From the NCBI GenBank assembly GCA_943357245.1, contig CALRGH010000001.1, forward strand, positions 13,456-77,455: a DNA stretch of 64,000 nucleotides, read 5' to 3'. A model generated the notes under the pieces. That model was not told where the DNA came from. It ran no database searches and saw only the letters and a program-made list of their open reading frames with translations. The DNA comes from Candidatus Nomurabacteria bacterium (GTDB lineage: Bacteria > Patescibacteriota > Minisyncoccia > Phycocordibacterales > UBA9973). Every line of letters starts with the position of its first letter. Position 1 is the stretch's first letter. The position numbers were made by a program, and so were the translations under genes. Shown here piece by piece: positions 3,233 through 49,140 of the stretch.

Positions 3233-3299
3233 ATTTTTGGTATAGTAGGGAGACCTTAGGGTGACTTTAAGAAGCCTTAGTGGTGAAATATCGTGTTCA

Positions 3300-3427
3300 G
3301 AAATTTTTTCACGCTTCGCGTAAAAAAACTTTCTGAACCGAATTTTGTGGGTCAAAATTATGGCCGGAAATTTTTTCACGCTTCGCGTAAAAAAACTTTC
3401 CGACACGATTTTTGTGGGTCAAAAATC
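3300..3427 (+). repeat. tandem direct duplication (67 + 61 bp) immediately upstream of tRNA-Thr; each copy contains the palindrome ACGCTTCGCGT
   Basis: GAAATTTTTTCACGCTTCGCGTAAAAAAACTTTC(T/C)GA(AC/CA)CGA(A)TTTTGTGGGTCAAAA is read twice in tandem. The second copy abuts the tRNA 5-prime end and is likely a duplicated promoter/leader. Confidence 0.8.
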
Positions 3428-3500
3428 GCCGCCTTAGCTCAGTTGGTAGAGCTACACTTTTGTAAAGTGAGGGTCCCCAGTTCGAGTCTGGGAGGCGGCT
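3428..3500 (+). tRNA. tRNA-Thr (anticodon TGT)
   Basis: 73-nt cloverleaf folded by hand, with no CCA encoded. Acceptor stem GCCGCCT/AGGCGGC. D-arm GCTC-AGTTGGTA-GAGC. Anticodon stem ACACT/AGTGA with loop TTTGTAA (U33, anticodon TGT, A37). 5-nt variable loop. T-arm CCCAG-TTCGAGT-CTGGG. Discriminator T. Confidence 0.88.
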
Positions 3501-3512
3501 CCCGAAACATAC

Positions 3513-8226: not shown

Positions 8227-9561
8227 TTAATCAAAATAGTTACGAAGTCTTGAAATTTTCTCATTATTGCGCAATTTCTCATGCACTTTTGCCTCGATCT
8301 GACGAATACGTTCACGAGTGACACCGAATTCAGTACCTACTTCTTCAAGCGTATGCTGTACCCCATCAGTCAATCCATAGCGAAGTTCCAAAATTTTGCG
8401 TTCTTTCGGAGACAGTTCGGAAAGCACTTCTTTGATTTGATCTTGCAATATGCGGCGTGAAGATTCTTGGTCAGGGCGAAGGATTTTGTCATCCGCGATA
8501 AATTCTCCACGAGTAGATTTGTCTTCATCATCCCCGATTGGTTGTTCGAGTGATACGGTTTCTTGGTTGATGCTTTCAATGATGTGCACCTTCTCAACTT
8601 CAATACCCATTTCTGTTGCAATCTCTTCTGCGAGCGGTTCACGACCCAAATCTTGAGACAATCGGCGCATCACTTGTTTGTATTTTGAAATCGTTTCCAC
8701 CATGTGCACTGGAATACGGATCGTGCGAGATTGGTCTGCGAGTGCACGTGTGATTGATTGGCGAATCCACCACGTCGCATACGTTGAGAATTTAAATCCT
8801 TTCGTCCAGTCGAACTTTTCAACCGCTTTAAACAAACCCAAATTTCCTTCTTGAATAAGATCAAGGAGTGTCAAATCAGAAGAGCGTCCAACATATTTCT
8901 TCGCAATAGAAACCACAAGACGAAGGTTTGCACGCGCGAGCAAATTCTTTGCTTCCATATCACCTGCTTGAATTCGCTTTGCAAGATCTTTTTCTTCTTG
9001 CGCATGGATCAACGGAAATTGTCCAATCTCTTTCAAATAAATCTGGATAGAGTCATAACTCGCTGCATCTTTGGTGCCATATTTGCCGAATGCTTTCGTA
9101 TCATCTTTTGCAGGCACATCGATATCGAGCAAATTACCACCTTCGAGCACATCCACCCCTGCAGTTTGAAATTTATCATAGAGCCCATCCAAGAAAAGCA
9201 CGTTACTTTCGATATCTGGAAACATGCGCAAAATTTCATCATACGTGATGAAGCCACGGCGCTTCCCTTTCTCCACCAAATCCCCCGCTAGTTTATCCCA
9301 AAGCACTGCTCGTTTTTCGGAGACCGTAGCTCGTTTTTTGTCGCCACCTTTTTTGCTCCGCCAGCTGGCGGATTTTTTAGGAGCAGCTTTTTTTACCACT
9401 TTTTTCTTGGCTCCGCCAGCTGGCGGATTTTTTTTCACTACTTTTTTAATTTGCTTTTTTGCAGGCTTTTTAGCTACCTTTTTCTTGGCTCCGCCAGCTG
9501 GCGGATTTTTTTTCACTACTTTTTTCTTTTTTGCTTTTGGCTTTGATTTTTTTGATGACAT
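8227..9561 (-). CDS. rpoD: RNA polymerase sigma-70 factor RpoD with a Lys-rich repetitive N-terminal extension
   Basis: Region 2 ([56 protein letters not shown]) and regions 3-4 are present. The N-terminal roughly 70 aa are [15 protein letters not shown] repeats. It lies downstream of dnaG, the macromolecular synthesis operon arrangement. Confidence 0.92.
9350..9510. repeat. three imperfect tandem repeats (spacing 55 and 78 bp) inside the rpoD 5-prime end, each containing the palindrome CCGCCAGCTGGCGG
   Basis: GCTCCGCCAGCTGGCGGATTTTTT is read at 9358-9371, 9413-9426 and 9491-9504. Copies 2 and 3 are in frame, while copy 1 is shifted by one nucleotide. Confidence 0.8.
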
Positions 9562-15115: not shown

Positions 15116-15122
15116 AGGTTTT

Positions 15123-15185
15123 GTAAATAGTTAGTCCGACCTTCGTCGGACTCCGACATAGGTCGGAGTAGTTAGTAATAAATAG
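15123..15185. repeat. double-hairpin repeat element (GTCCGAC-CTTC-GTCGGAC then CTCCGAC-ATAG-GTCGGAG) in the rpoC-rpoB intergenic spacer; inverted second copy at 40634-40700
   Basis: The 48-bp core 15123-15170 is identical to the reverse complement of 40649-40696. Confidence 0.85.
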
Positions 15186-15210
15186 TTTTTTATCTAATCT
15201 ACGAGGCTAA

Positions 15211-18200
15211 CTAGTTTTCAAGATTATCGTTCTTCAATATGACATCAAGTGCAAGACCGCGAAGGTAATTTAACATCACCTTAAACGATGCTGGTGCATT
15301 TGGTTGTCTAATTGGTTCACCTTTGATAATAGAATCAAATGTCTGCGAACGACCTAAAATATCGTCAGACTTAATCGTTAACATTTCACGAAGAATGTGG
15401 GATGCGCCGTATCCTTCAAGTGCCCACACTTCCATTTCTCCGAAGCGTTGACCTCCTCCTTGTGCCTTACCGCCGAGTGGCTGTTGCGTAATGAGTGAGT
15501 AGGGTCCAATTGAACGCATGTGAATCTTGTCTTCCACCATGTGGTGCAGTTTCAAGACATACATATAGCCGATAGCAATATCTTGTTCGAATGCATCACC
15601 GGTGCGTCCATCAAAAAGTTTGATGCGACCGTGTTCTGGGAATCCTCCGGCTACTAATTCTTTCTTAATTTCGTTTTCATTTGCACCAGAGAACGGTGGC
15701 ACGATAGCTTGATAACCAAGCGCATTTGCCGCAAGTCCTAAGTGCATTTCCAAAATCTGTCCAAGGTTCATACGTGATGGGACACCGAGCGGCGTAAGTG
15801 CAATATCAACAGGTGTTCCATCTGCCATGTATGGCATATCTTCTTCAGGTAAGATGATTGAAATAACACCCTTGTTACCGTGGCGACCAGCGAGTTTATC
15901 ACCCACTGAAATGTTGCGGATCTGTGCGACTTCAACAATTACTTTTTTGATGATACCGGATTCCAAATTGTGTCCTTTGTCGCGAGAGAAAATTTTCACG
16001 CCGATAACACGACCACGTTTGCCGTGTTCCATACGAGTTGAGGTATCTTTCACATCGCGTGCTTTTTCTGAGAAGATCGAGCGGAGCAAGCGTTCTTCTG
16101 GCGTGAGTTCTGTTTCGCCTTTTGGAGTAATTTTACCAACCAAAATATCATTTTCGCGCACTTCTGCACCAACACGAATGATGCCTTCTTCATCGAGATC
16201 CTTCAATTTTGTTTCGCCGACGTTTGGAATATCGCGTGTTGTTTGTTCAGGTCCAAGTTTTGTATCGCGAACGGTACAAATAAATTCTTCAATATAAATA
16301 GATGTGAATTTTGAATTCTTTACGAGACGCTCTGAGAGAATGATCGCGTCTTCATAGTTTTGTCCACTCCATGACATGAATGCAACGAGGACGTTTTGTC
16401 CAAGTGCAATTTGTCCATGATCTGTTGTCGAAGTATCTCCGAGCACTTGTCCTTTTTTGACTTTCTCACCTACTGCAACAATTGGACGTTGGTGAAATGA
16501 ACCGAAGTTGTTGGTTCGAGAGAAGTTGACGAGCGGATAATTTATTTTTGTTTTTCCATCAACCACAATGTGCTGTGCATCTACTGCGGTAATAACGCCA
16601 TCTTCTTTTGAAATAATAAGTCGTCCTGAATATCGTGCGGCCAATTCTTCCATACCAGTAGCTACGAGTGGTGCTTCTGGGCGAACCACCGCCATCGCCT
16701 GCTTTTGCATGTTTGATCCCATGAGTGATCGGTTTGCATCATCGTGTTCGAGGAATGGAATCATAGATGTTGCAATAGAAAATGCTTGGTTTGATGCGAC
16801 GTCGATAAAATCCACTTCATCTTTTGCAACAAGACCTGGTTCTGTTTTTACGCGAGCTTCGACGAATGGTGCGGTAATGGTACCTTTATCGTCATATGGG
16901 ATTTGCGCGTGCGCAATGTTGTACTGTTCTTCTTCAAGCGCATTTAAATACACCACTTCGCCGGTGATTTTTCCTTTCTTTACTTTAATATATGGAGATT
17001 CGATGATACCGAAATCGTTCACACGAGCATAGGTTGCCAAGTGCAAGATAAGACCGATGTTCGGACCTTCTGGAGTGTGAATAGGACACACGCGACCATA
17101 GTGGGAGGTGTGTACGTCACGAACTTCAAGAGAAGCGCGTTCACGTGTCAAACCGCCGGGACCGAGTGCTGAGAGGGTTCGCAAGTGCTCGATTTCTGCC
17201 AAGACATTTTCTTGGTTCATAAATTGTGAGAGCTGGTTTGTCGTGAAAAATTCCTTAATACGAGCTTGGAGGGGACGTTGGTTGACGATAGCAATAGGAA
17301 GCGCTGTCGTAATATCGATAGTCGACATACGATCTTGAATGTTGCGCTTGATTTGCGTCATACCGATACGCACTTTTTGCTGGAGCAATTCTCCGACATA
17401 ACGAACTCGGCGTTGTGCCAAGTTGTCGATATCATCTGCTTTTGCATCCGGTGTCGTGATAAGCGTCATGATGTGATCAATGATTGTTGCCAAGTCATCG
17501 ATTGAAAGCGTGCGTCGTGCAAGTTCTTTGTCGCCCATGTCTTTTTCGAATCGTTTGTTGAAACGGAAACGACCGACAGGAGAAAGATCGTAGCGTTCCG
17601 GAGAGAACATATTTTTGATAAATTCGCGAGCATTATCTGCAGTTGCAAGGTCGCCATCGCGAAGACGCTTATAGATTTCAATGTTTGCTGATTGGATATC
17701 TTTTGCAGTATCTTTTTCAATCGCAACAGAAAGCATGTGCTTTGATGCATCAGATTTTACCAATTTTTGCATCGCCGCTAAATCTGTAAGACCAAAAACA
17801 CGCAAAAGAGACGTAATTGGGAATTTACGTTTTTTGTCGATACGGACATAGAGAATACCATCTGCATCGGCTTCAATTTCCATCCACACACCACGTGCCG
17901 GAATGATTTTTGCGCCGAAGAACGTCTTCCCTTTCACTTCATTTTCAATAAAGAACACGCCGAATGAGCGTGCGAGCTGTGGCACAATAACGCGTTCAAC
18001 GCCGTTGATCACAAACGTACCGTGGCCGGTCATCATCGGCACATCTGCCATGAAAATTTCCTGCTCCTTCGCATCGCCCGCCATTGTCTTATTAATAAGC
18101 TTCACGCGCGCTTTCAAAGGCGCTTCGTAGGAGAGCTTATTTGCACGAGCAAAATGTTCGTCATGTTTTGGTTCACCGATATAAAAAGAGACAAATTCAA

Positions 18201-19302: not shown

Positions 19303-19400
19303 GGAGAGACTATACAATAAAAAGTACGTTGTGTCACTAAAACAGCAAAGCAGCGCCGACGTAGTCGGCGCTGCTTTGCTGTTTTAGTTTATTGTGTGTT

Positions 19401-19430
19401 CCCTGCTACTTGCTACCAGTCCCTTGCTAC
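19401..19430 (+). repeat. 30-bp element CCCTGCTACTTGCTACCAGTCCCTTGCTAC (copy a), abutting the stop codon of the KH-domain gene
   Basis: Read directly. Near-identical copies are at 19888-19917 and 22350-22384, with an inverted partial copy at 22270-22294. Confidence 0.85.
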
Positions 19431-19762
19431 TAAATGCCTTTAAGGTCTTCCATTGCCTGATCAACTGTCGATGCACTCATACCTGCGCCACCTGGTGCAG
19501 CGGGAGGTACCAAACGTCCACCTTCTGGCTCGTTGATTTTCAAATTTACTCGAGCGTTGTTTTTCATACCAATGACACGGAGCAATGTTCGGATCGCTTT
19601 TGCGGTATTGCCTTGGCGACCGATAATCTTTCCCATATCAGCTTGATTGACGGACAAGGTAACCAATACTCCCATTTCATCTACCGTTCGATCAATTTTT
19701 ACATCATTCGGATTGTCTACTAATGCTTTCACTACGTACTCTAGAAATTGCTTGTCTTCCAT
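19430..19762 (-). CDS. KH-domain RNA-binding protein (YlqC/UPF0109-like)
   Basis: VGMKNNARVNLKI and IGRQGNTAKAIRTLL (GxxG KH loop). It sits in the conserved rpsP-KH-trmD position. Confidence 0.8.
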   Translation of the reverse strand: MEDKQFLEYVVKALVDNPNDVKIDRTVDEMGVLVTLSVNQADMGKIIGRQGNTAKAIRTLLRVIGMKNNARVNLKINEPEGGRLVPPAAPGGAGMSASTVDQAMEDLKGI

Positions 19763-19866: not shown

Positions 19867-19887
19867 ATGTGGATTATTTTTTGTTTT

Positions 19888-19917
19888 CCCTGCTACTTGC
19901 TACCAGTTCCTTGCTAC
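19888..19917 (+). repeat. 30-bp element CCCTGCTACTTGCTACCAGTTCCTTGCTAC (copy b), overlapping the rpsP stop codon
   Basis: Read directly. It overlaps the rpsP stop (CTA at 19914-19916). Confidence 0.85.
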
Positions 19918-20222
19918 TTACTCGCTTTCATCAACTTTCGTTTCTGTGTTGGTGCTTTCTTCGAAAGGACGTTGCGCTTTTTTGCGGTAAGCACTCCTTC
20001 TTGTACCAAGAAATTATGTACCGTATCTGATACTTGCGCGCCTTCTTTAATGCGCTTCAAGATTGCTTCTTTCTTAAATTCTGGTTTACCAGCATGTGGG
20101 TTATACGCACCCAAAATTTCGATAAATTTACCACTCTTTGCGGCATTTTTTGAATCGGTCAACACGACGCGGAAATGCGCTTCGTTCTTGCGGCCTATTC
20201 GTTCTAATCTGATCTTTAACAT
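19914..20222 (-). CDS. rpsP: 30S ribosomal protein S16
   Basis: MLKIRLERIGRKNEAHFRVVLTDSKNAAKSGKFIEILGAYNP matches the S16 N-terminus. Confidence 0.92.
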   Translation of the reverse strand: MLKIRLERIGRKNEAHFRVVLTDSKNAAKSGKFIEILGAYNPHAGKPEFKKEAILKRIKEGAQVSDTVHNFLVQEGVLTAKKRNVLSKKAPTQKRKLMKASK

Positions 20223-22269: not shown

Positions 22270-22384
22270 GTTGGTAGCAAGTAGCAAGGGTTTCAAAACA
22301 ATATAAACACAAGTGCAGGATTTGGCGAAGCCAAATCCTGCACTTGTGTCTTCCCTGCTACTTGCTACCAGTACCTTGCTACAA
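22270..22384. repeat. composite MITE-like unit: inverted partial copy of the 30-bp element (22270-22294), 20-bp-stem perfect hairpin (22307-22349), direct copy of the element (22350-22384)
   Basis: GTTGGTAGCAAGTAGCAAGGG (reverse complement of CCCTTGCTACTTGCTACCAAC), then ACACAAGTGCAGGATTTGGC-GAA-GCCAAATCCTGCACTTGTGT, then CTTCCCTGCTACTTGCTACCAGTACCTTGCTACA. It lies between the rnr stop and the capA start. Confidence 0.8.
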
Positions 22385-22406
22385 GCAGTATGCTACCATA
22401 CTGCTT

Positions 22407-27952: not shown

Positions 27953-30223
27953 CTATTTGGCATACTGCCCTGCCTCATCAAGCTTGATGGAAAGGACTTT
28001 TGAGACACTGTCGGAGCCAATGGTGACACCGTAGAGCACGCCAGCACGAGACATTGTTTCGCGATTGTGGGTGACGACAACGAGTTCTGATATGTGCGAG
28101 AGTCGCTCAATCATACTGCCGTATTTGCGAGAGTTCGCTTCATCGAGCGCAGCGTCAGTCTCATCGAGCACCAAAAATGGCGGCGGGTTTACTTGTGATA
28201 TTGCAAAGAGAAGCGCGATAGACGTAAGACTACGTTCCCCACCGGAGAGCATTGCGAGATCGCGCACTTTTTTCTGTGGCAGAGATACATGGACTTCGAC
28301 ACCACGTTCAAATCCTTCTTCGGCTTCTTCTGGTGAATCCGAAATGGACAAGTCCTCTTCGTCATCAGTTATTTTCGGCTTGCGCTTATGCATCATCGTC
28401 ACTTCGAGAAATGCGTCTCCCCCACCAAACATCACTTTGAAAAAATCTTTGAATTGCGTATTGATTTTGTGAATACCGCTTTTAAATTCTGCTTCGAGCT
28501 TCTCGCGCAGATCCATAATGAGCTCTTCTAAATTTTTGATTGCATCCGTTACATCAGCGAGTTCTTTTATTAAAAATGTATCGCGCTCTTGCGCTTCTTG
28601 ATATTCTTTTATGGTATCAATACCTGAACCGCCGCCGATTTCCTCGAGTTTTATTTTTGCACGTTCAAGTGTGTGTTTTAATGTTGCGCGTTCTTCGACA
28701 CTCAATACTTCCGGCGCATTGCGCGCAAGTTGGCCAATTTCTGGACCGATGAGCACACCACCTTCGCGAAGTTCTAAATCAAAGGCTTCGTTGTCGCGAG
28801 TATGTCTCTCTTCAACAAGCGTCAGCGCACGAAGCTCTGAAAGTGTTCGCTCGAACGCTTGGCGTGCTTCGTAATACGCACGTTCTTCTTCTCGAGCATT
28901 CGTGGTTTCGTACTTTATTTTTTCTTCTAAGACCTCAATCTCTTTTGTAATGTGTGCTTCTTGTTGTTGTAACTCTGTATACGTTGTTTGCGCAGCAGCT
29001 AGCTCTTGTTCGATGCGCGCAATATCGTCATGCGTTTTTTCTTCGTGCGCGGATTCTGCAATACTAGATTTAAATTGCGCAACCGCATGACGAATTGCGG
29101 TCAAGCGTTCCAATATTTCTTCTTTTGTAGATTCTGTAAATGCACGGTCTGCGTCTTCTAAAATGACGTCGCACAAGTTTGATACTTTTTCGTAGGATAT
29201 TGGTGCATGTTCATGATATGCCGTATGTACTGGCTTTTTGACAAGCTCGAGCGCACCTTCCAAACGACCAAGTACGCGAAGTAATGCATCTCGCTCTTCA
29301 GTTATTTTTCGGCGCTTTGCAATGAGCTCGATGCGTTCTTTCTGTTCAGCACTTTCAACACTGCCACCGTGCGACATTTTTTGTTCGTGCTCTGCGACAC
29401 TTTTTTCATGGAGTCGTTTTGCATCAAGCAGAGATTTTTTCTGCTCACCAATCGTTGCTTGTTCTTGTATGAGATATGCATGCACCGATGGCAAATATCT
29501 GCCGTACATTTCTTTTACTTCTTCGCGAAGTGATTTTGTGCGTTCTATTTTCTCAACTTGTTTTTTGAGGAACGTAATGTGCGGTGCGATTTCTCGGCGA
29601 AGACTTTGTGCCTCGCGCATATTCTCGCGAGATTTTTCTAATTTACGTTCGCTCTCACGAATACGATATTGATAGACTTTGAGCCCAAGCGCATCTTCGA
29701 TCATCTCTCGGCGATCTTTGGCACGTGCCGTAAGAATATGATCTGCCTCGCCTTGAGAGATAATGTGGTGACCGGATGCGCCAATGTGTACCGACGAGAG
29801 AAGTTCGACAATATCTTTGAGGCGCACATCCGTGCCATTTATTTTGTACGCTGATGAACCATCGGCGTACACTTCGCGAGTAATGGATATTTCATCAAAA
29901 TCTACGGAGAGTGCTCCGTCAGCTGACGGATCGCCCGCACTTGCGAATTGGAATTTGCGATTGTGATTATCAAAGACAATCGTGACTGATGCGCGTGACG
30001 GTGCGACGGTTCCCTTGCCTCCTTTGAAGATAAGATCAGTGCCACCTTTTCCGCGCAGCGATTTCATCGACTGTTCACCGAGCACGAAACGAATAGCTTC
30101 GACAACGTTTGATTTGCCCGAACCATTGGGACCAACAATGCCCGTGACCGGAGACGTAAAAATAAACTCGGTCTTCTTGCCGAATGATTTGAAACCGTTA
30201 AGTTCAAGGCGCTTGAGCGTCAT
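27953..30223 (-). CDS. SMC-family ATPase, short (756 aa) and apparently hinge-less
   Basis: N-terminal head MTLKRLELNGFKSFGKKTEFIFTSPVTGIVGPNGSGKSNVVEAIRFVLGEQS (Walker A). About 400 aa of coiled coil. C-terminal ABC signature LSGGERSLTSIALLFAI and Walker B FLVLDETDAALD. The ending VTHNRETMSRAGVLYGVTIGSDSVSKVLSIKL is typical of SMC. No hinge-like domain was found. Confidence 0.75.
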   Translation of the reverse strand: MTLKRLELNGFKSFGKKTEFIFTSPVTGIVGPNGSGKSNVVEAIRFVLGEQSMKSLRGKGGTDLIFKGGKGTVAPSRASVTIVFDNHNRKFQFASAGDPSADGALSVDFDEISITREVYADGSSAYKINGTDVRLKDIVELLSSVHIGASGHHIISQGEADHILTARAKDRREMIEDALGLKVYQYRIRESERKLEKSRENMREAQSLRREIAPHITFLKKQVEKIERTKSLREEVKEMYGRYLPSVHAYLIQEQATIGEQKKSLLDAKRLHEKSVAEHEQKMSHGGSVESAEQKERIELIAKRRKITEERDALLRVLGRLEGALELVKKPVHTAYHEHAPISYEKVSNLCDVILEDADRAFTESTKEEILERLTAIRHAVAQFKSSIAESAHEEKTHDDIARIEQELAAAQTTYTELQQQEAHITKEIEVLEEKIKYETTNAREEERAYYEARQAFERTLSELRALTLVEERHTRDNEAFDLELREGGVLIGPEIGQLARNAPEVLSVEERATLKHTLERAKIKLEEIGGGSGIDTIKEYQEAQERDTFLIKELADVTDAIKNLEELIMDLREKLEAEFKSGIHKINTQFKDFFKVMFGGGDAFLEVTMMHKRKPKITDDEEDLSISDSPEEAEEGFERGVEVHVSLPQKKVRDLAMLSGGERSLTSIALLFAISQVNPPPFLVLDETDAALDEANSRKYGSMIERLSHISELVVVTHNRETMSRAGVLYGVTIGSDSVSKVLSIKLDEAGQYAK

Positions 30224-33843: not shown

Positions 33844-36800
33844 ATGTCGGAAAAAAAGTTCGTCCACTTGCATACTCACTCTCACTATTCCCTCTTGGAC
33901 GGGCTTAATAAAATAGATAAACTCGTAAAAACTGCCAAAGAATCTGGCATGAATGCGCTTGCGCTCACCGATCACGGCACGATGTATGGCGCTATTGAAT
34001 TTTATCAAGCGTGTAAAAAAGCGGAAATCAAACCAATCATCGGCGTCGAAGCGTACATGGCAACGCGCTCGCGTTTTGATAAAGACGCAAATGTAGATAA
34101 TAAACGCTACCATCTCACCCTTCTCGCAAAAAATAATCAGGGCTATAAAAACTTAATGAAGCTCGTGACCCTCGCACATACCGAAGGCTACTATTACAAG
34201 CCACGCATGGATAAAGAAATCTTGCGACAGTACCACGAAGGACTCATCTGTCTTTCTGGGTGTCCAGGATCCGAACTCGGGCGAACGTTACGAGATAATG
34301 ATTTGGAAAGAGGACGAGCAATTGTCAAAGAATATTTGGATATATTCGGCAAGGAAAACTATTTTCTTGAATTCATGAACCATCCGGAAGTTGAAGGTAC
34401 GGAAGATTGGAAAAAGCACATCATCACCCTCGCACAAGAATTTGATTTAAAAATTGTCGGCACGTGGGATTCGCACTATTTACATATTGACGATGCAGAA
34501 GCACAAGATACACTCGTCGCTATCAATACCGGAAGCGAAGTCGGTAATGCAAAAATGTCGATGAAGTCGGGAAATTATTCGTTCATCAATGTCGATCAAG
34601 CGCATGAGGCATTTAAAGATGTCCCCGACGCAGCAAACAATACGCAATTTGTTGCAGATCTTATCGATGTCGAAATAGAACTCGGTAAATTATATTTTCC
34701 AGAATACAAATTAGAGAATAACGAAGACCCGAATGACGCGCTTAAGAAAATGTCGTACGACGGATTTGCACGTCTTGAACTTGCGCAAACTGATGAACTT
34801 ACGAAACGTCTCGAATATGAACTGGATATTATTAAAATAAAAGGATACCCGTCGTACTTTTTGGTCGTGGCAGACCTCATGCGATTTGCGCGCGAAAACG
34901 GCATTCTCACCAACACTCGAGGATCAGCTGCTGGTTCACTCACCTCATATCTCTGCGGTATTACCAACATCAATCCTGTTGAATACAATCTTCCTTTCGA
35001 GCGTTTTTTAAACCCACATCGTCCAAGTCCACCTGATGTGGATATGGATATTGCTGATACACGTCGTGATGAACTTATTGAATACGCACGTCATAAATAC
35101 GGTGAAGATCATGTAGCGCAGATTGGTACATTCGGTACGATGATGGCGCGCGGTGCGGTACGCGACGTGGCGCGAGCTCTCGGATATCCATACAACACCG
35201 GCGATACTATTTCAAAAATGATACCGATGGGTTCGCAGGGTTTTCCGATGACACTTGATCACGCAATGGAACTTGTTCCTGAACTTAAAGAAAAATACGA
35301 TACCGACCGAAGTGCAAAAGAAATTATTGATCTCGCCAAAAAAATAGAAGGGTCAGCACGACATATTTCGGTGCACGCAGCAGGTGTGGTTATTGCACCA
35401 AAACCAATTACCGAATTTACGCCAATACAGTTTGATCCGAAGGGGGGTAAATTAATTACCCAATACGATATGTATTCGATCGAAGATGCAGGATTGCCGA
35501 AATTTGATTTCCTTGGTATTCGCAACTTATCATTCTTGGCAGAATCACTCGAACTCGTGCGAACGCTCTACAACACACCCATCCAACTTGAGAAAATCCC
35601 TCTTGATGATAAAAAAACATTTGAGATGCTCGCTCGTGGCGAAACAGAAGGAGTGTTTCAATTAAACGGTGGCGGTATGACACAAAAATTAGTGCGACTG
35701 AAGCCAACAACTATTCATGACATCAATGTGATGGTTGCGCTCTATCGTCCAGGTCCGATGCAGACGATTGATGAATATATCGAACGAAAACAAGGCAAAC
35801 ACCCAGTGATATTTTATCATCCAAAAATGGCAAGTTATCTCCAGACAACATTCGGATTGCTTGTGTACCAAGACGATCTCCTCTTTACCGCTATCGAACT
35901 CGCTGGATACGACTGGGGCGAAGTTGATAAATTTCGAAAAGCCGTCGGTAAAAAAATTCCTGAAGAAATGGCGAAGCAACACGTAAAATTCGTCGAAGGA
36001 TGTCAGAAACATTCTGCAATGACAAAAGCTGAATCAGAAAAAATTTGGGAACTGTTCGAACCGTTCCAAGGATATGGTTTCAATAAAGCGCATGCGGCAA
36101 GTTATGGAAAATTGTCGTACCAGACGGCGTACATGAAAGCAAACTTCCCTGTCGCATACATGGCCGCGATGATGACGGCAGAATCTGGCGACATAGACAC
36201 TATCGGTATCTATGTGCGTGAAGCTGAACGTATGGGGATTAATGTATTACCTCCTGCGGTCAATGAAAGTTTTGGTGGATTTACCGTGATCCAAGAAGAA
36301 AATAAGACACTTATTGATAGTCGCGTGATACGTTTCGGATTGTATACGATTAAAAATCTGGGTACCGATATTGCGGATGCAATAATTGCAGAACGAAACA
36401 ATCCGCCAGCTGGCGGAGGCAAGTTTACCTCGCTTGAAAATTTCTTGGAACGAATCACGCACAAAAATTTGACGAAGAAATCAATGGAAGCACTCGCAAA
36501 AAGTGGAGCCTTCGATTCATTTGGTATTCCTCGTGCGACCATTGTTAACAATATGGAACTATTACTCACCTTTAATAAAGAGCACGCAAAAGCATCATCG
36601 CAAGTATCACTATTCGCAGATATTGGGCATACATTTTCGACTAATCTAACGCTTACCCAAGTGCCCGATAATGATAAAGAAAAATTAGCATGGGAAAAAG
36701 AGTTGCTTGGATTGTATATTTCCGGACACCCACTTGATCCTATTCGCGACAAAATAGAAGCAAATGGTATGACGATTAAAAAAATAAAAGAAGACGTCGC

Positions 36801-37241: not shown

Positions 37242-37790
37242 GACTTCTTCTTTCTCTCTTTTCCTGTTTTTAACAAGTGAATACAATTCAATGACTTCAT
37301 CTTGATATGTCGTCTTTGATAAAGTACCGTCCTCTTTTTCTCGTGCAAATGGTCTACTAGGTCTTCCAAGTGCACTGTCTAAATAAGAAACTCCGGACAT
37401 AACTCGTTCAAAAAAAATCTCTTCAGGAAATTGCTGCAACACTGTAATTAATTGTTCAACATCATTCCGTACGACACCTTCATGATTTTCACTCCAATAA
37501 CCAAGAAGAGCTTGTAAGTGTGTTTGTGAAAACCAAAATGGATTGAGCACATATTGCGCGTATGTTTCTCGTGCTTGTTCTTTGTGGATAAGTCTTCGTG
37601 ACCACTCTTTTGCTTGAGTTCCACCTCCAGAATAATAAAAAATACAGCCGCAGGCAAAAGGAAATACGACAAGCATATAGTAACCGTACCCGAGCATGTT
37701 TGTAGAAAAGACGATAGCAAACACAACAGCCGCAACGAAACAAAACACTGAAATGAGAAAAAGGAGGTTATTATTTTCTTTTTTATTCAT
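37236..37790 (-). CDS. hypothetical membrane protein (184 aa, 3 TM helices)
   Basis: TM helices LLFLISVFCFVAAVVFAIVF and YYMLVVFPFACGCIFYY. Co-linear ORF. Confidence 0.5.
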   Translation of the reverse strand: MNKKENNNLLFLISVFCFVAAVVFAIVFSTNMLGYGYYMLVVFPFACGCIFYYSGGGTQAKEWSRRLIHKEQARETYAQYVLNPFWFSQTHLQALLGYWSENHEGVVRNDVEQLITVLQQFPEEIFFERVMSGVSYLDSALGRPSRPFAREKEDGTLSKTTYQDEVIELYSLVKNRKREKEEVI

Positions 37791-37875
37791 GTTAAAATTT
37801 TTTATTACTATACATTTGTCTTACAGAAATGACAAGCCCTTCGCCGGAAATATCCTTTGTGGTACAGTAGTACGT

Positions 37876-39630
37876 ATGACTCCCGAACAATTATCTCCAT
37901 TACGCCACACGCTCGCTCATTTACTCGCGGCCGCAGTCGGCAGTATCTATAAATTCGACAACATAAAGCTGACACTCGGTCCTGCGATCGACAACGGCTT
38001 TTATTATGACATCGACATGTGCGGACAAAAAATTGCCGACACCGACCTGCCAAAAATCGAGAAGAAAATGCGCGAACTGCTTCCGAAATGGACGGAATTC
38101 ACCCATGAGGAAATGAGCAAAGACGAAGCATTGGCATTCTTCAAAAATGAATACAAAGCCGAACTGATACACGAGATCGACGCACGGGGAGAAAAAATAA
38201 CGGTGTACACCTGCGGAGGTTTCAAGGATTTGTGTCGTGGCGGTCACGTAGAAAATCCTGCAGAGGAAATTGCGAACGCTGGATGGAAATTAGACCGCAT
38301 TGCAGGCGCGTACTGGCGCGGTAGTGAAGAAAACCCAATGCTCACGCGTATTTATGGGCTTGCCTTTGAATCGCAAGAAAAATTGGAAGAATACGCAAAC
38401 CAACAAGAAGAAGCAAAAAAGCGAGACCATCGCAAACTTGGTACCAACATGGAACTCTTTGCTTTTTCAGATCTTGTCGGCGCAGGTCTTCCCCTTTGGC
38501 TTCCAAACGGCACAGTGCTTGTGGAAGAATTAGAGAAACTCGCGAAAGAGTCTGAATTTCATGCTGGTTATGACCGCGTGCGCACACCGCACATAGCAAA
38601 AGAACAAATGTATATTACGAGTGGCCACTTACCTTACTATGCAGATTCTATGTACCCACCGATGGAATACGAAGGTGGCAAATATTATTTGAAGGCGATG
38701 AATTGCCCGCACCATCACCAAATCTTTGGCGCAACACCAAAATCATATAAAGACCTTCCCCTTCGTCTCGCTGAATACGGCACGTGTTATCGTCATGAAA
38801 AATCTGGCGAACTCTTTGGTCTGATGCGTGTACGTACCCTCCAAATGAACGATGCACATATTTATTGTACCGAAACACAATTTGCTGATGAATTTCGCGC
38901 GGTAAATGAATTGTATTTAAAATATTTTAAAATTTTCGGCATCGACAAATATATCATGCGTTTTTCAACACACGATCCAAAAAAGCGCGGAGAAAAATAT
39001 CTCAACGAACCAGAACTCTGGAAAAAGACAGAAGACATGGTACGCCAAGTACTTATTGATTCAAATATTCCGTATGTTGAAGTACAAGATGAAGCTGCAT
39101 TCTATGGACCAAAAATTGATGTGCAAGTCTGGAGTGCAATCGGTCGCGAATTTACACTTGCAACAAACCAAGTAGACTTCGGGGTACCTGCACGCTTCGG
39201 TCTTACCTATACTAATAAAGAAGGTAAACAAGAAACACCGCTCTGCATCCATCGCGCACCACTCGGTACGCATGAACGCTTCATTGGATTCTTGATTGAA
39301 CACTATGCAGGCGTATTTCCTACATGGCTTTCTCCATTTCAAGTTGCCATCGTTCCAGTCAAAGAATCTCATGATGCGAAAGCGAAAGAAATACAGCAGA
39401 TATTACGGGGTCATATGATTCGTGCAGAGCTCCACGTGGCTGGCGATAGTCTTGGTAAGCGAATCCATAAAGCAAAAGATATGCACACACCGTACATCAT
39501 CATCATTGGTGATACAGAAATCGAGAGTGGTAATCTCACTATCGAAAGACGAGACGGAACAAAACTAGAAAATATACCACTTGATACATTTCTTGCGGAT
39601 ATACAAAAAGAAATTTTTGATAGAAACTAG
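37876..39630 (+). CDS. thrS: threonyl-tRNA synthetase lacking the N-terminal TGS domain
   Basis: Editing-domain motif HTLAHLLAAAVGSIYKFDNIKLTLGPAIDNGFYYD. Class II core HRKLG...FRNE-type motifs. Anticodon-binding C-terminus. The start is set at the ATG at 37876 (MTPEQLSPLRH) because the upstream extension overlaps the convergent gene. Confidence 0.88.
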   Translation: MTPEQLSPLRHTLAHLLAAAVGSIYKFDNIKLTLGPAIDNGFYYDIDMCGQKIADTDLPKIEKKMRELLPKWTEFTHEEMSKDEALAFFKNEYKAELIHEIDARGEKITVYTCGGFKDLCRGGHVENPAEEIANAGWKLDRIAGAYWRGSEENPMLTRIYGLAFESQEKLEEYANQQEEAKKRDHRKLGTNMELFAFSDLVGAGLPLWLPNGTVLVEELEKLAKESEFHAGYDRVRTPHIAKEQMYITSGHLPYYADSMYPPMEYEGGKYYLKAMNCPHHHQIFGATPKSYKDLPLRLAEYGTCYRHEKSGELFGLMRVRTLQMNDAHIYCTETQFADEFRAVNELYLKYFKIFGIDKYIMRFSTHDPKKRGEKYLNEPELWKKTEDMVRQVLIDSNIPYVEVQDEAAFYGPKIDVQVWSAIGREFTLATNQVDFGVPARFGLTYTNKEGKQETPLCIHRAPLGTHERFIGFLIEHYAGVFPTWLSPFQVAIVPVKESHDAKAKEIQQILRGHMIRAELHVAGDSLGKRIHKAKDMHTPYIIIIGDTEIESGNLTIERRDGTKLENIPLDTFLADIQKEIFDRN

Positions 39631-39640
39631 TAAATAGAGC

Positions 39641-39698
39641 AAAAGCAACCGTAGTCAATTTTTCGCCATGGCGAAAAATTGACTACGGTTGCTTTTTT
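39641..39698. terminator. 25-27-bp-arm perfect palindrome centred on CCATGG followed by T6 (thrS terminator)
   Basis: AAAAGCAACCGTAGTCAATTTTTCGCC-AT-GGCGAAAAATTGACTACGGTTGCTTTT then TTTT. Confidence 0.8.
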
Positions 39699-39734: not shown

Positions 39735-40430
39735 ATGATTTTACAATTTAATACTGACATTCCCTGCCCTACTTGTACCACAGAAACACTTGTTGAAAAT
39801 ATCGAATTTGAAGATAGAACTGACAAGTGGCGTTCATGGGGATACCTTTGTACAAGCTGTCACAAAAAATACAAACTCACGCAATTCAAAGAATCCCACG
39901 AAAAATTCAGACAAAAGATGACCGCTTTCTTGGAAAAAAATTACTTCATTGTTCTTGTGCGAGATCTTAATTTCAATGAAGTATGCCATCACGGAAGTAT
40001 TACCTCGTCAGATGTATCTTTGTTTAGAAAAGGAACAATATTTGCGCGAAGTTATTATGATGACAACGCAATGAGAGTAACTGACCCAGAAGTTGCAATA
40101 AAAAGTTTCGCGCATGGTCCGAAATATATCTTGCGCGGAAAGAACAAAAAATCTGTTCCTAAAATAAATCCGGCATTTTCTTTTCCTCGTGGATTTTCTA
40201 TGCAACAAATCAAGCATTACCCATTGCGTCGCCAAGGGAAAAAAGGGTCGGAATCATTCCATGTTCACCAATTACGACAAAAAGAATCTCTTGCTATAAC
40301 CTTGTATCCTTTTGATCACAAGAAGATATCACCTGACCAACTTACTCGTTACTACATTCCGCTTTATTTAGGGAAAGTAATAGGAAGAAAAAAACCAGCA
40401 TCCAACAAAAAACCTCTCACAAATACGTGA
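39735..40430 (+). CDS. hypothetical protein with N-terminal zinc-ribbon (CPTC...CTSC), basic C-terminus
   Basis: Two CxxC pairs in the first 45 residues. Terminator directly downstream. Confidence 0.5.
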   Translation: MILQFNTDIPCPTCTTETLVENIEFEDRTDKWRSWGYLCTSCHKKYKLTQFKESHEKFRQKMTAFLEKNYFIVLVRDLNFNEVCHHGSITSSDVSLFRKGTIFARSYYDDNAMRVTDPEVAIKSFAHGPKYILRGKNKKSVPKINPAFSFPRGFSMQQIKHYPLRRQGKKGSESFHVHQLRQKESLAITLYPFDHKKISPDQLTRYYIPLYLGKVIGRKKPASNKKPLTNT

Positions 40431-40440
40431 GAGGTTTTTT
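40413..40440. terminator. bidirectional terminator CCTCTCAC-AAATAC-GTGAGAGG flanked by A6 and T6
   Basis: Read directly. Confidence 0.75.
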
Positions 40441-40619
40441 TATAAAGAAATTTTATTTTTCCAATAGTCATTATTTTCACTATAGTATTTTTGAATATCC
40501 TGAAGATGTCTATTATAAAATTCTTTTTCAAATACATCTATTGCCATTCCTGAAACACTTTTCTCATCCAATACCCACATCTGTTTTAATATTTTATTTA
40601 ATTCCTGATCTTGTGCCAT
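40440..40619 (-). CDS. unannotated small ORF (59 aa, below the ORF-track cutoff), hypothetical
   Basis: MAQDQELNKILKQMWVLDEKSVSGMAIDVFEKEFYNRHLQDIQKYYSENNDYWKNKISL. AGAGGA Shine-Dalgarno sequence 9 nt upstream of the ATG at 40619. The stop abuts the bidirectional terminator. Confidence 0.4.
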   Translation of the reverse strand: MAQDQELNKILKQMWVLDEKSVSGMAIDVFEKEFYNRHLQDIQKYYSENNDYWKNKISL

Positions 40620-40633
40620 GTTTTTTGTATCCT

Positions 40634-40700
40634 CTATTTACTATTTACTACTCCGACCTATGTCGGAGTCCGACGAAGGTCGGACTAACTATTTACTAAT
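40634..40700. repeat. inverted copy of the double-hairpin element seen at 15123-15185, abutting the gyrB stop codon
   Basis: TACTCCGACCTATGTCGGAGTCCGACGAAGGTCGGACTAACTATTTAC at 40649-40696 is the exact reverse complement of 15123-15170. Confidence 0.85.
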
Positions 40701-42743
40701 TTATATATCAATCTCCGCTAACTTTGCATGTGTTTGGATAAATGATTTGCGAGGCGCAACATCCGAACCCATCAACATGTCAAACACTTTATTTGCTTCT
40801 TCGGCATCATCGACATTCACTTGTTTCAAAATACGTCGAGCAGGATCCATTGTTGTTTCCCATAATTCTTCTGCGTTCATTTCTCCGAGACCTTTATAGC
40901 GTTGGAGGTGGAATTTACTTGCCTTCACCTCTTTCTTTGCATCTGTTTCTTCATCAGTTACCACATCATCTCCACCCTCACTTTCGTCTGTCTCTTCGAT
41001 TTCTGCATTGTCGCCAGTAATCGCCATTTTTTCTTCATCAGTATACGCATACCACAGTTCTTTACCTCGCTTTATTTTATAAAGTGGTGGTTGCGCAATA
41101 TAAATATGTCCGGCATCAATGAGTGGTTTGAAGTGACGGTACAAGAGCGTCAAAATAAGCGTACGGATGTGTGCGCCGTCCACGTCGGCATCGGTTGCGA
41201 TAATGATTTTGTGATAACGCAATTTTGAAATATCAAACGTATCACCGATTGCGGTTCCCATCGCAATAACCAAGTTTTTAATTTGTTCAGAGGCGAGCAT
41301 TTTATCAAGACGCGCACGTTCGATATTTAGGATTTTGCCACGCAGTGGCAAAATCGCCTGCGTGCGACGATCGCGTCCCATTTTTGCCGTACCTCCAGCG
41401 GAATCTCCTTCCACAATAAAAATTTCAGATTCTTCTGCACTCTTTGAACCACAGTCTGCAAGCTTGCCCGGAAGCGTCATACCTTCAAGCGCACCTTTGC
41501 GGAGCACGGAATCCTTTGCTGCTTTTGCTGCTTTACGCGCGCGAACCGCCAAGATCACTTTGTTAATAATCATCTTTGCTTCGTCTGGATGCTCTTCGAG
41601 AAATGCTTCAAATGCTTCCCCGAAGACCGTTGTGGTTGCGCCTTGTGCTTCAGGAGAACCCAATTTCCCTTTTGTCTGTCCTTCAAATTGAATTTCACGA
41701 AGTTTTACCGAGACGACTGCGGTCAATCCTTCAAGGACATCATCGCCCGTAAATGCGCCATCAGATTCTTTGATGAAATTATTTTTTTTGCCGTAGGTAT
41801 TCAAAAGACGCGTAAGTGCTGTTTTAAAACCAATCACATGAGTACCTCCTTCTTGCGTATAAATATTGTTCGCAAATGGCAAGATGCGACAAGAAATGTC
41901 ATCGATATATTGGAGCGCAATTTCAACGCCAACATCATTCAATTCTTTGTCCACATAAAAAATAGTATCCTGTACTGTTTTTTGGTGCAGGTTTTGGTGG
42001 CGAATAAGCGATACCAATCCTCCTTCGAAATAAAAACTGTGCGATGGCGCTTCAATGCCTTGGTCTTTCAAATACACTTCATCATCAAGATTTATTTTAC
42101 CTTCGTAATTACGTGCATCGATAACCGTGATTAATAATCCTTTGACTAAATATGCTTGCTGACGCATGCGACTGACAATAATATTCCATTCAAATTCTGT
42201 TGTTGTTTTAAAAATTTCTTTATCAGGCTGGAAGGTCACAATGGTGCCGTGCAATTTCGAAGAACCGACTTTTTTGACGGCTGCTTTTTTCTTACCACAC
42301 GCATATTCTTGCATGTGCTTGCCACCATCACGATGCACTTCTACTTTTGTGTATGTGGAAAGTGCATTCACTACCGACGCACCAACGCCGTGCAAACCGC
42401 CAGAAACTTTGTAGCCGTCACCACCAAATTTACCACCGGCGTGGAGCGTCGTCATGACTGTTTCAAGTGCGGATACTTTTGTTTTGGAATGAATGTCCAC
42501 TGGAATACCGCGACCATTATCCGCAACGCGCACATGATTGTTTGGTAGGAGTGCAATCTCAACACGGTTTGCAAATCCGCCCATCGCTTCATCGCGAGAG
42601 TTATCAAAAATTTCCCATATCAAATGATGCAAGCCTTCAGAGCCTGTTCCTCCAATATACATACCGGGACGTTTTCGTACCGGTTCGAGTCCTTCAAGGA
42701 CTGAAATATCTTCTGCGGAATATGATCCTTTCTTATCTACCAT
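40701..42743 (-). CDS. gyrB: DNA gyrase subunit B (type IIA topoisomerase ATPase subunit)
   Basis: GHKL ATPase motifs EGLHHLIWEIFDNSRDEAMGG and GLHGVGASVVNALS. Toprim EGDSAGG. C-terminal tail. 680 aa. ParE cannot be excluded, but gyrB is more likely. Confidence 0.85.
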   Translation of the reverse strand: MVDKKGSYSAEDISVLEGLEPVRKRPGMYIGGTGSEGLHHLIWEIFDNSRDEAMGGFANRVEIALLPNNHVRVADNGRGIPVDIHSKTKVSALETVMTTLHAGGKFGGDGYKVSGGLHGVGASVVNALSTYTKVEVHRDGGKHMQEYACGKKKAAVKKVGSSKLHGTIVTFQPDKEIFKTTTEFEWNIIVSRMRQQAYLVKGLLITVIDARNYEGKINLDDEVYLKDQGIEAPSHSFYFEGGLVSLIRHQNLHQKTVQDTIFYVDKELNDVGVEIALQYIDDISCRILPFANNIYTQEGGTHVIGFKTALTRLLNTYGKKNNFIKESDGAFTGDDVLEGLTAVVSVKLREIQFEGQTKGKLGSPEAQGATTTVFGEAFEAFLEEHPDEAKMIINKVILAVRARKAAKAAKDSVLRKGALEGMTLPGKLADCGSKSAEESEIFIVEGDSAGGTAKMGRDRRTQAILPLRGKILNIERARLDKMLASEQIKNLVIAMGTAIGDTFDISKLRYHKIIIATDADVDGAHIRTLILTLLYRHFKPLIDAGHIYIAQPPLYKIKRGKELWYAYTDEEKMAITGDNAEIEETDESEGGDDVVTDEETDAKKEVKASKFHLQRYKGLGEMNAEELWETTMDPARRILKQVNVDDAEEANKVFDMLMGSDVAPRKSFIQTHAKLAEIDI

Positions 42744-48777: not shown

Positions 48778-48812
48778 TCTGTGTCACCCTGAATTTATTT
48801 CAGGGTCCAGGC
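48778..48812. repeat. left terminal inverted repeat / hairpin of the GIY-YIG cassette (TCTGTGTCACCCTGAATTTATTTCAGGGTCCAGGC)
   Basis: The reverse complement of 49106-49140 is CTTGTGTCATCCTGAATTTATTTCAGGATCCAGGC. There are three mismatches, two of which are compensatory within the internal hairpin. Confidence 0.8.
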
Positions 48813-49096
48813 TAAATTTCTAAGTCCTCCCACTGAGGATTATTTGCTTCAATAAAATTTAATTTCCATTTTCTATGCCAATTTTTTAATTGTTTTTCTC
48901 GGACAATAGCAATTTGCACATCATTTGTCTCTTCAAAATAGACAAGTTTGTGCACATTATATTTTTCAGTAAATCCTTCGACAAGATTATTTTTATGTTC
49001 AGATATTCTTCGCCGTAAATTATTTGTTACGCCAATATAAATAGTGCCATTTCTATCTGTTGCTAAAATATATACATAATATTTCTTGTATAGCAT
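48812..49096 (-). CDS. GIY-YIG nuclease-family protein (94 aa)
   Basis: YVYILATDRNGTIYIGVTNNLRRRISEH...KLVYFE is the GIY-YIG motif set (GIY..YIG..R..E). Confidence 0.8.
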   Translation of the reverse strand: MLYKKYYVYILATDRNGTIYIGVTNNLRRRISEHKNNLVEGFTEKYNVHKLVYFEETNDVQIAIVREKQLKNWHRKWKLNFIEANNPQWEDLEI

Positions 49097-49105
49097 AAGT
49101 ATTCC

Positions 49106-49140
49106 GCCTGGATCCTGAAATAAATTCAGGATGACACAAG
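49106..49140. repeat. right terminal inverted repeat / hairpin of the GIY-YIG cassette
   Basis: See the entry for 48778-48812. Confidence 0.8.

Follow-up and report, generated by a model that had tools for sequence, protein, structure and literature searches.

The locus studied here raises the question of why a 35-nt double hairpin should be found twice, as inverted copies, between rpoB and rpoC and beside gyrB in a Candidatus Nomurabacteria genome. Both copies lie in the window, by which we mean the whole stretch of 64,000 nt that was analyzed (assembly GCA_943357245.1, contig CALRGH010000001.1, positions 13,456 to 77,455). These copies are probably solo members of a selfish family of double-hairpin elements of Patescibacteria, which resembles repetitive extragenic palindromic (REP) sequences and miniature inverted-repeat transposable elements (MITEs) and has an Ssn-like GIY-YIG nuclease as its likely partner. 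The coordinates of the copies, the genes around them and related features are given in Table 1.

The + strand sequence at 15123-15172 is the exact reverse complement of 40647-40696; this 50-nt segment, the longest exact match between the two sites, reads GTAAATAGTTAG-TCCGACCTTCGTCGGACTCCGACATAGGTCGGA-GTAGT, and ungapped extension lengthens the pair to 66 nt at 94% identity. A sequence-only reading of this DNA had described two adjacent hairpins with 7-bp stems, repeated in inverted orientation, with one copy filling the rpoC-rpoB spacer. All of this was confirmed, with the central C being common to both hairpins. The identity of its 48-nt core also stands, but the length was slightly understated, and the second copy, which it had placed at the stop codon of gyrB, does adjoin the end of that gene but follows the stop codon; the shared segment starts just past it (40699-40696) and the exact part begins 5 nt after it. 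The core, G-TCCGAC-CTTC-GTCGGA-C-TCCGAC-ATAG-GTCGGA-G, consists of 35 nt with four identical 6-nt arms and has a G+C content of 63%, compared to 41.6% for the window. The half-pattern TCCGAC-N4-GTCGGA is found 4 times in the window, where 0.05 occurrences are expected from shuffled sequences. Around copy 1, the AT-rich flanks (GTAAATAGTTAG and GTAGT-A-TAAATAG) are rich in stop codons, and the octamers that border the arms (ATAGTTAG and GTAGTTAG) match at 7 of 8 positions. The hairpins are followed by CUAACUAUUUACAAAACC toward rpoC and by UAGUAAAUAGUAAAUAGAGG at the gyrB copy. A stop-codon-rich motif of the flanks, GTAAATAG, is enriched in the window (9 occurrences versus 1.7 expected) and also follows the 644-aa open reading frame (ORF) at 37696-39630, named thrS in the sequence-only reading; taking into consideration this enrichment and the stop codons in the flanks, the element seems to have been inserted in ordinary gene-end sequence.

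Searches with a generalized double-hairpin pattern found the same architecture in at least 120 metagenome contigs among the matches listed; counts over the copies of the family refer to 121 unique copies (120 for the flanking repeats). Many of these contigs are from groundwater by record name (e.g., the Hainich wells), and the pattern had no match among viral contigs. A scenario in which only two copies exist as a local terminator duplication is thereby excluded, as at least 120 contigs carry the architecture and neither window copy is followed by a U tract. The scan of genome contigs, for which the exact 35-mer and not the degenerate pattern was used, identified the core in a single further species representative, a metagenome-assembled genome of Ca. 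Nomurabacteria. In this genome the copy lies between a 217-aa ORF and an ORF with an N-terminus that resembles ribosomal protein L11 by eye, and the contig has no nucleotide similarity to the window besides the 35-nt core. Three cores, the two in the window and one in contig L001, are identical to each other and point to what may be a recently active subfamily. A mismatch-tolerant scan returned mostly register-shifted exact matches and about five truly imperfect copies. Furthermore, a Logan contig with identical GyrB (L122, ERR5863119) ends after the first hairpin of the element (2440-2473), which is an assembly break at the repeat. With the Rfam 15 covariance models, a tRNA was the sole match in the window at or above the gathering score and the best hits at the element had E values of 0.3-0.9; literature searches for a description of such a double-hairpin element specific to Patescibacteria or the candidate phyla radiation found nothing.

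Members of the family are not confined to spacers. Of the unique copies, 28 of 121 lie within ORFs of 200 aa or more, at a distance of 40 aa or more from either end, including genes encoding GyrB, leucyl-tRNA synthetase (LeuRS) and DNA polymerase I (Pol I), and are translated, e.g., as VRPESDSDTRSE. When the window GyrB was used in tblastn searches, single high-scoring segment pairs spanned the element in contigs L060 and L080. The element encodes the peptide VRPESDSD(T/S)(R/G)SE in the variable acidic linker that precedes KIHIQRFKGLGEMNPEELW in GyrB of four lineages, unlike the window gyrB, which has no element in this linker; the peptide is likewise absent in L031 and L068. The element directly follows the EELW motif in five LeuRS genes, and in a Pol I gene it is located in a loop. 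The reading frame is kept whether the element measures 33, 34 or 35 nt from arm to arm, which indicates that the element is translated and not removed at the RNA level, and RNA splicing of the coding copies was rejected on this basis. Coding copies favor a length of 34-35 nt and non-coding copies one of 33-34 nt, and for 24 of the 28 coding copies the C-centered strand is the sense strand.

Among the sampled copies, nine are within gyrB or next to it and occupy three different positions. A different lineage has the element approximately 65-70 nt upstream of gyrB (L031 2687-2722, L068 3128-3163 and L083 3918-3953), and these upstream copies belong to a G..C subfamily with longer loops; according to lineage, the element is thus located before, inside or after gyrB. 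The LeuRS loop after EELW also holds other, unrelated short inserts, such as TTNDRRLTT and SPCEVSPGRLGRLRGS, in proteins P0125, P0138, P0148, P0195, P0201, P0206 and P0240, and is apparently a hot spot of small insertions.

A further group of approximately 25 copies is flanked by tRNA D-loop sequence, with the element located either between ..TAGCTCAGTGG and GTAGAGC.. or between GTAGCTC and CAG... These copies are associated with 5' tRNA fragments that lie upstream of an intact tRNA gene. A tRNA intron was considered as well and rejected, since excision of the element with 36 boundary combinations yielded no tRNA that spanned the junction. The loci selected by the repeat contain 14 small GIY-YIG ORFs, and each is preceded by a double hairpin, which in 13 of them is 9-46 nt from the ATG; the copy in L117 is degenerate and 22 nt away. 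To control for selection bias, loci were fetched by GIY-YIG protein identity alone, and a double hairpin was again found upstream in 3 of 3 (a TCCCGAC variant for P0244, a mixed copy for P0254 and a canonical one for P0248). The proteins encoded by these ORFs are 87-119 aa long, have PF01541 as their sole above-threshold Pfam match (E values down to 3e-16) and share the motif GVYIL.S.KNG.YYIGST...R...HN...E.RLK.YKR.D. Their nearest solved structures are UPF0213 and SLX1, and they are 35% identical to the one encoded by a 94-aa GIY-YIG ORF of the window.

The tRNA sequence, the hairpins and the nuclease ORF can be joined in one cassette, which comprises tRNA nt 1 to ~13-19, the double hairpin, a short spacer and a GIY-YIG ORF of ~92 aa. 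At four loci (Table 1) exactly 10 nt are shared by the end of the ORF and the intact tRNA that follows it, and the TAG stop codon of the ORF is therefore U8-A9-G10 of that tRNA. Host tRNAs of the cassettes are those for Ile, Val, Thr, Gly, Ala and Phe. It is conceivable, although we advance this tentatively, that the double hairpin and the ~92-aa ORF together represent an undescribed mobile cassette of Patescibacteria of ~350 nt, which would enter tRNA D-loops in such a way that the tRNA is rebuilt intact behind it, tRNA nt 1 to ~13-19 remain as a direct repeat and the ORF ends on U8-A9-G10. Solo hairpins, both window copies included, would then be its non-autonomous offspring, which colonize essential genes in frame and move between alleles by gene conversion. 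Two contigs (L076 300-950 and L117 12100-12750) additionally contain nests of partial tRNA-Ile copies, some consisting of 5' parts and some of 3' parts with T-arm and acceptor, in which the inner intact tRNA is flanked by CCGAAATTTT and AAAATTTCGG; these nests resemble scars that repeated rounds of cassette insertion or recombination have left at a single tRNA locus.

The four equal arms allow two folds of the RNA or ssDNA, namely side-by-side hairpins or one long nested hairpin. The minimum-energy fold predicted by ViennaRNA is the nested one, at -28.2 and -24.7 kcal/mol (z = -5.9 and -4.7), and z ranged from -3.9 to -5.9 across the four strands tested. TIGR arrays and CRISPR were considered for a nested hairpin with internal loops and rejected, as the loops are 3-6 nt long and there is no array. 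Covariation was counted by an anchored script on the 121 unique family members, and the comparative data support both folds. The base that opens loop 1 and the one that closes loop 2 are C..G in 108 copies, G..C in 10 and T..A in 1, a covariation that lengthens the helix formed by arms 1 and 4 and is in line with the nested fold. For the side-by-side fold, the flanking G residues, which can pair with the central C, are kept in 115 and 116 of the 121 copies, and in L110, the sole copy in which the center is T, both flanking bases are A. In L126 hairpin 1 alone is changed, on both its arms (CCCCGAC/GTCGGGG), and in other contigs all four arms are changed together, to TCCCGAC/GTCGGGA in L008 and L123 and to TCCGCC/GGCGGA in L023 and L079. 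Loop lengths of 3-6 nt across the family argue for recognition of a folded single strand and not of rigid duplex half-sites.

Signs of movement were found both in the flanks and in comparisons of filled and empty sites. Direct repeats of 8 bp (at least 7 of 8 matching) flank 10 of 120 copies, including copy 1 of the window, and six of these are perfect; with randomly paired flanks the count averaged 0.6 and never exceeded 4. Only at a length of 8 nt is there a signal, with none at 6, 7, 9 or 10 nt. It is suggestive of a target duplication, which can be said no more firmly because some flanks are short tandem repeats. When LeuRS homologs were sampled with the element peptide removed from the query, the element was present in 1 of 102, and the nearest LeuRS relative of L079, at 90% identity, is without it. 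At the filled LeuRS site of L079 (3436-3469), 42 nt including the element replace 18 nt of the empty site in L132; mismatches between the two are dense from -57 to +15 and in an upstream patch from -344 to -211, and sparse elsewhere. The mismatch cluster looks like a recombination or conversion tract that may have carried the element in or out, and the mosaic suggests frequent short-tract recombination between strains. For orthologous copies, the flanks are 50-70% identical and the loops differ while the stems are intact, the latter being partly an effect of ascertainment since exact stems were used in the search.

Several features of the family are shared with the Ssn system. Chenal et al. 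(2025) described single-domain GIY-YIG Ssn nucleases of 94 aa (cd10448 in CDD), the genes of which are flanked by multi-copy hairpin repeats (NTS/SRM) that are bound and cut only as single-stranded DNA (ssDNA), on one strand only (PMC11893778). In both cases a GIY-YIG protein of ~92-94 aa, apparently of a single domain in the family studied here, is encoded beside a hairpin repeat that is also found elsewhere in the genome, and repeat and protein vary together between lineages. The element differs in that it is a tandem double hairpin with no GTCWY or RNCYNB flanks, in that it is found only on the 5' side of the gene, in its low copy number per genome, in its cassettes in tRNA genes, and in that about a quarter of its copies are inside genes, compared to 2% for NTS. 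The window contains a locus with the described layout (Table 1), with repeats that each hold the hairpin GTCAY-CCTGAA..TTCAGG-RTCCAGG, which represents a related system and not the double-hairpin element. Its layout and flanks are like those of NTS-ssnA-NTS, but its AT-rich stem fails the strict SRM pattern, and the published regular expression for SRM has no match anywhere in the window.

With the REP/BIME (REPIN) elements and their RAYT proteins, the family shares short GC-rich palindromes that are often paired, are located in operon spacers and tolerate read-through, as well as, putatively, dispersal by a nuclease encoded beside a copy. In contrast to REP elements, its neighbor is a GIY-YIG and not a Y1/HUH protein, it has no family-wide GTAG/CGTC head and many of its copies are intragenic; moreover, some double-hairpin copies have 8-bp flanking repeats, whereas ssDNA transposition leaves none. 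No Y1_Tnp gene was found beside any copy, the adjacent genes being GIY-YIG genes, and a single Y1_Tnp gene was noted at a distance of 9 kb from a cassette, in a record that contains no DNA sequence. MITEs (e.g., Correia/NEMIS) are non-autonomous, have inverted termini, make target-site duplications and can be co-transcribed. The outer arms of the element form a 7-bp inverted repeat and its 8-bp flanking repeats may be such duplications, but the element is several times shorter and these repeats are visible in ~8% of copies, most copies being without them. Neither a DDE transposase nor a parent insertion sequence with matching ends was seen in 131 loci, which were not searched systematically for them. 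The proposal of the sequence-only reading that the repeat is REP-like or MITE-like stands at its core, given the family, the 8-bp repeats in a subset and the presence/absence differences. The findings differ from that picture on two points, as the copies are not extragenic (the 28 in long ORFs depart from this REP feature) and their neighbor is a GIY-YIG gene and not a RAYT or DDE transposase gene.

Two other kinds of element are similar in form. Rickettsia palindromic elements have been found inserted in frame and translated, at sites that correspond to the variable loops of essential proteins, aminoacyl-tRNA synthetases among them (PMC1779305), as is seen for the coding copies here; they are 100-150 bp long versus 33-37 bp, have no apparent sequence similarity to the element and belong to another bacterial lineage. 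Mitochondrial double-hairpin elements (DHEs) of chytrids and fission yeast are GC-rich double hairpins in AT-rich genomes, for which searches use GC windows of 35 bp. They are found in intergenic regions and structural RNA genes, can be identical across species and are suspected to be mobile, with no transposase known (Paquin et al., 2000; PMC10085805). Size, shape and cross-species identity are thus alike (PMC10085805, PMC2800124). On the other hand, DHEs are organellar and unrelated in sequence, and the texts consulted on DHEs report no comparable coding copies. Work on Allomyces reportedly linked DHEs to endonuclease ORFs.

The finding of the same core at unrelated sites and in unrelated genomes, along with copies in spacers, essential genes and tRNA D-loops, is what leads to a reading of selfish spread. 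The family would be made up of elements of ~35 nt with four TCCGAC/GTCGGA arms, loops of 3-6 nt, a central C and a G on each side, and would spread as selfish, mobile or recombination-spread DNA. Judging from gene adjacency, its partner is likely the single-domain GIY-YIG nuclease of ~92 aa that has a double hairpin just upstream of its gene. We infer that this nuclease may recognize the element, that recognition may drive the spread and that the window copies would be without host function. The latter would have landed in stop-codon-rich spacers of the rpoB-rpoC operon and of an operon of gyrB and a small ORF, where they are probably transcribed through and neutral or nearly so; an effect on mRNA stability or on translation of rpoC is possible, though not indicated, and would be a by-product.

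A number of observations weigh against this account. Only two copies are present in 64 kb and other loci have extra copies at ~1 per 90 kb, which probably corresponds to ~10 copies per genome of ~1 Mb and not to hundreds; classic REP and NTS families, unlike the element, number in the hundreds. The window has no GIY-YIG gene of the element-adjacent type, and its single GIY-YIG gene has different hairpins. The SRM pattern (HGTCWY..YYVSBRH..WNVSBRG..RNCYNB, as a regular expression) matches the element in neither orientation; for this reason we regard the double hairpin as the putative repeat partner of a distinct Ssn-like clade and not as an Ssn member, so that it would work like the Ssn system while being outside it by the published motif. 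Several of the duplicated 8-bp flanks are themselves short tandem repeats, and GIY-YIG or ssDNA (IS200-type) mechanisms are not known to give an 8-bp duplication. Since the search pattern was exact, the perfect stems among the collected copies are in part artefactual. Finally, the orientation bias of the coding copies (24 of 28) could reflect selection on peptide or RNA and not insertion, and the rpoB-rpoC site may have a conserved role.

The best surviving alternative, in our judgment an unlikely one, is that the element is a host cis-regulatory RNA, i.e., a site for RNase III or other processing, a stabilizer of mRNA or a brake on translation of the downstream gene, within the operons of rpoBC and gyrB. 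Compared with shuffled sequences the predicted folds are very stable, both copies are located between co-transcribed genes, the core of copy 1 is 18 nt before the rpoC ATG with no Shine-Dalgarno sequence visible there, and the 24:4 orientation of coding copies fits a constraint at the RNA or strand level. REP elements are known to stabilize upstream mRNA (PMC3733652). However, the gene sets of rpoBC and gyrB are all on the minus strand, and the C-centered strand of copy 2, in contrast to that of copy 1, is the sense strand; the copies are therefore oppositely oriented relative to transcription, their RNAs differ and a shared RNA function is unlikely. Moreover, one RNA role does not explain the coding, tRNA-fragment and nuclease-upstream sites, there is no Rfam match and close LeuRS relatives are without the element. 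No promoter-like or terminator-like sites were called at either window copy, including the rpoB-rpoC spacer.

It is more improbable still that the element is bound as double-stranded DNA by gyrase, a nucleoid protein, a regulator or some other host protein, with four half-sites for a dimer or tetramer. REP/BIME elements bind gyrase and IHF, the arm sequence of the element is constant across very different genomes, the palindrome covaries at the seventh position, and the nine sampled copies in or beside gyrB, at their three positions, could be viewed in this light. Loops of 3-6 nt, on the other hand, alter the spacing and helical phase of half-sites and suit hairpins, the copy number is low and the enrichment at gyrB largely reflects the same orthologous sites sampled repeatedly. 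We give even less credence to a recombination switch in which homologous or site-specific exchange inverts the 25-kb segment from rpoB to gyrB. The inverted identity of 50 nt is perfect and the GC skew is ~0 from ~12 to 40 kb and ~-0.1 to the right of 40 kb, but the left change in skew is at 10-12 kb and not at 15.1 kb, and skew tracks gene orientation. An identity of 50 bp is only marginal for RecA-type recombination, and no alternative junction was found. Apart from the window, the one contig that has this gyrB ends inside the element, and elsewhere the family mostly has one copy per locus. An ordinary intrinsic terminator, duplicated locally, would fit GC-rich hairpins after the gyrB stop in this AT-rich genome but can scarcely be entertained, as no T/U run follows the hairpins of either window copy on either strand, the family is widespread, a terminator ahead of rpoC or inside the GyrB, LeuRS and Pol I genes would be lethal, and members tolerated inside essential ORFs cannot be efficient terminators.

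Table 1. Coordinates of the double-hairpin copies, neighboring genes and related features (window positions unless a contig is named)
Feature	Position	Strand	Remarks
Double-hairpin copy 1, 35-nt core	15134..15168	+	C-centered strand is +, antisense to rpoB/rpoC
Copy 1, first half	G15134; TCCGAC 15135-15140; CTTC; GTCGGA 15145-15150; C15151		
Copy 1, second half	TCCGAC 15152-15157; ATAG; GTCGGA 15162-15167; G15168		
Copy 1, extended shared segment	15120..15185	none	66 nt at 94%, 50 exact at 15123-15172
Double-hairpin copy 2, 35-nt core	40651..40685	-	same as copy 1 read on the minus strand
Copy 2, extended shared segment	40634..40699	none	between the gyrB stop and the Shine-Dalgarno sequence and ATG of the 59-aa ORF
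rpoC, 1227 aa	11432..15115	-	start codon 18 nt downstream of the copy 1 core
rpoB-rpoC intergenic spacer, 95 nt	15116..15210	-	holds copy 1
rpoB, 1056 aa	15211..18381	-	TAG stop at 15211-15213
59-aa ORF	40440..40619	-	beyond copy 2; good Shine-Dalgarno sequence
gyrB, 680 aa	40701..42743	-	TAA stop at 40701-40703
Ssn-like locus	48780..49138	-	94-aa GIY-YIG ORF 48812-49096 between 38-nt inverted repeats, 89% complementary
Cassettes overlapping tRNA	L133 1277-1672; L123 9900-10342; L059 1240-1654; L111 3810-4225		
Second hairpin family, A-TCCGNC-AGCT-GNCGGA-GC			perfect 16-nt palindrome; all copies in frame in essential genes
A-TCCGCC-AGCT-GGCGGA-GC in rpoD (8227-9561)	9357-9372, 9412-9427, 9490-9505	-	Lys-rich N-terminus
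Single-hairpin copy in dnaE	36402-36417		translated NPPAGG
Single-hairpin copy in SMC-like gene	29915-29930		TCCGTC/GACGGA, compensatory on both arms; translated DPSADGA

The RpoC of the window is 99% identical to one NCBI protein, with the other matches being at most 76% identical and labeled Patescibacteria, Paceibacterota or Nomurabacteria; look-ups of the exact RpoB and RpoC sequences found no match. Other repeats are also present. Copies of a second, single-hairpin family are listed in Table 1; two of the three in rpoD are translated as NPPAGGA and one as SASWRS, and TCCGCC-N4-GGCGGA is also found in eight other loci. A repeat of 30-50 nt, CCCTGCTACTTGCTACCAGTCCCTTGCTAC, occurs within 3 kb in direct (19392-19441, 19879-19928 and 22344-22393) and inverted (22272-22312) orientation. 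Just upstream of tRNA-Thr (3428-3502), two tandem units of 67 nt that are 79% identical (3277-3410) form long imperfect hairpins, GTTCAGAAATTTTTTCACGC-TTCG-CGTAAAAAAACTTTCTGAAC. After the stop codon of the 644-aa ORF, a perfect loopless palindrome of 28+28 nt (39641-39696), which may act as a terminator, lies between the + strand ORFs 37696-39630 and 39735-40430, and a gene-end motif near it, TAGTAAATAGAG, resembles the right flank of copy 2.

Genomes of Patescibacteria are tiny and streamlined and are thought to be poor in selfish DNA; yet a 35-nt element is present at the rpoB-rpoC junction and beside gyrB, and is found at other loci within the genes for GyrB, LeuRS and DNA polymerase I. In practical terms, assemblies break at the double hairpin, marker-gene calls and protein alignments show unexplained inserts of 11-13 residues such as VRPESDSDTRSE, and the element marks recombination tracts between strains. 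Among systems that pair a nuclease with a hairpin repeat, the family is notable for its double-hairpin form, its in-frame copies in essential genes and its cassettes in tRNA genes. If the neighboring GIY-YIG protein is the nuclease of the element, it would represent a new specificity among the Ssn-type ssDNA nucleases that are being developed as tools, and the two together would be a natural nuclease-hairpin pair that targets tRNA genes.

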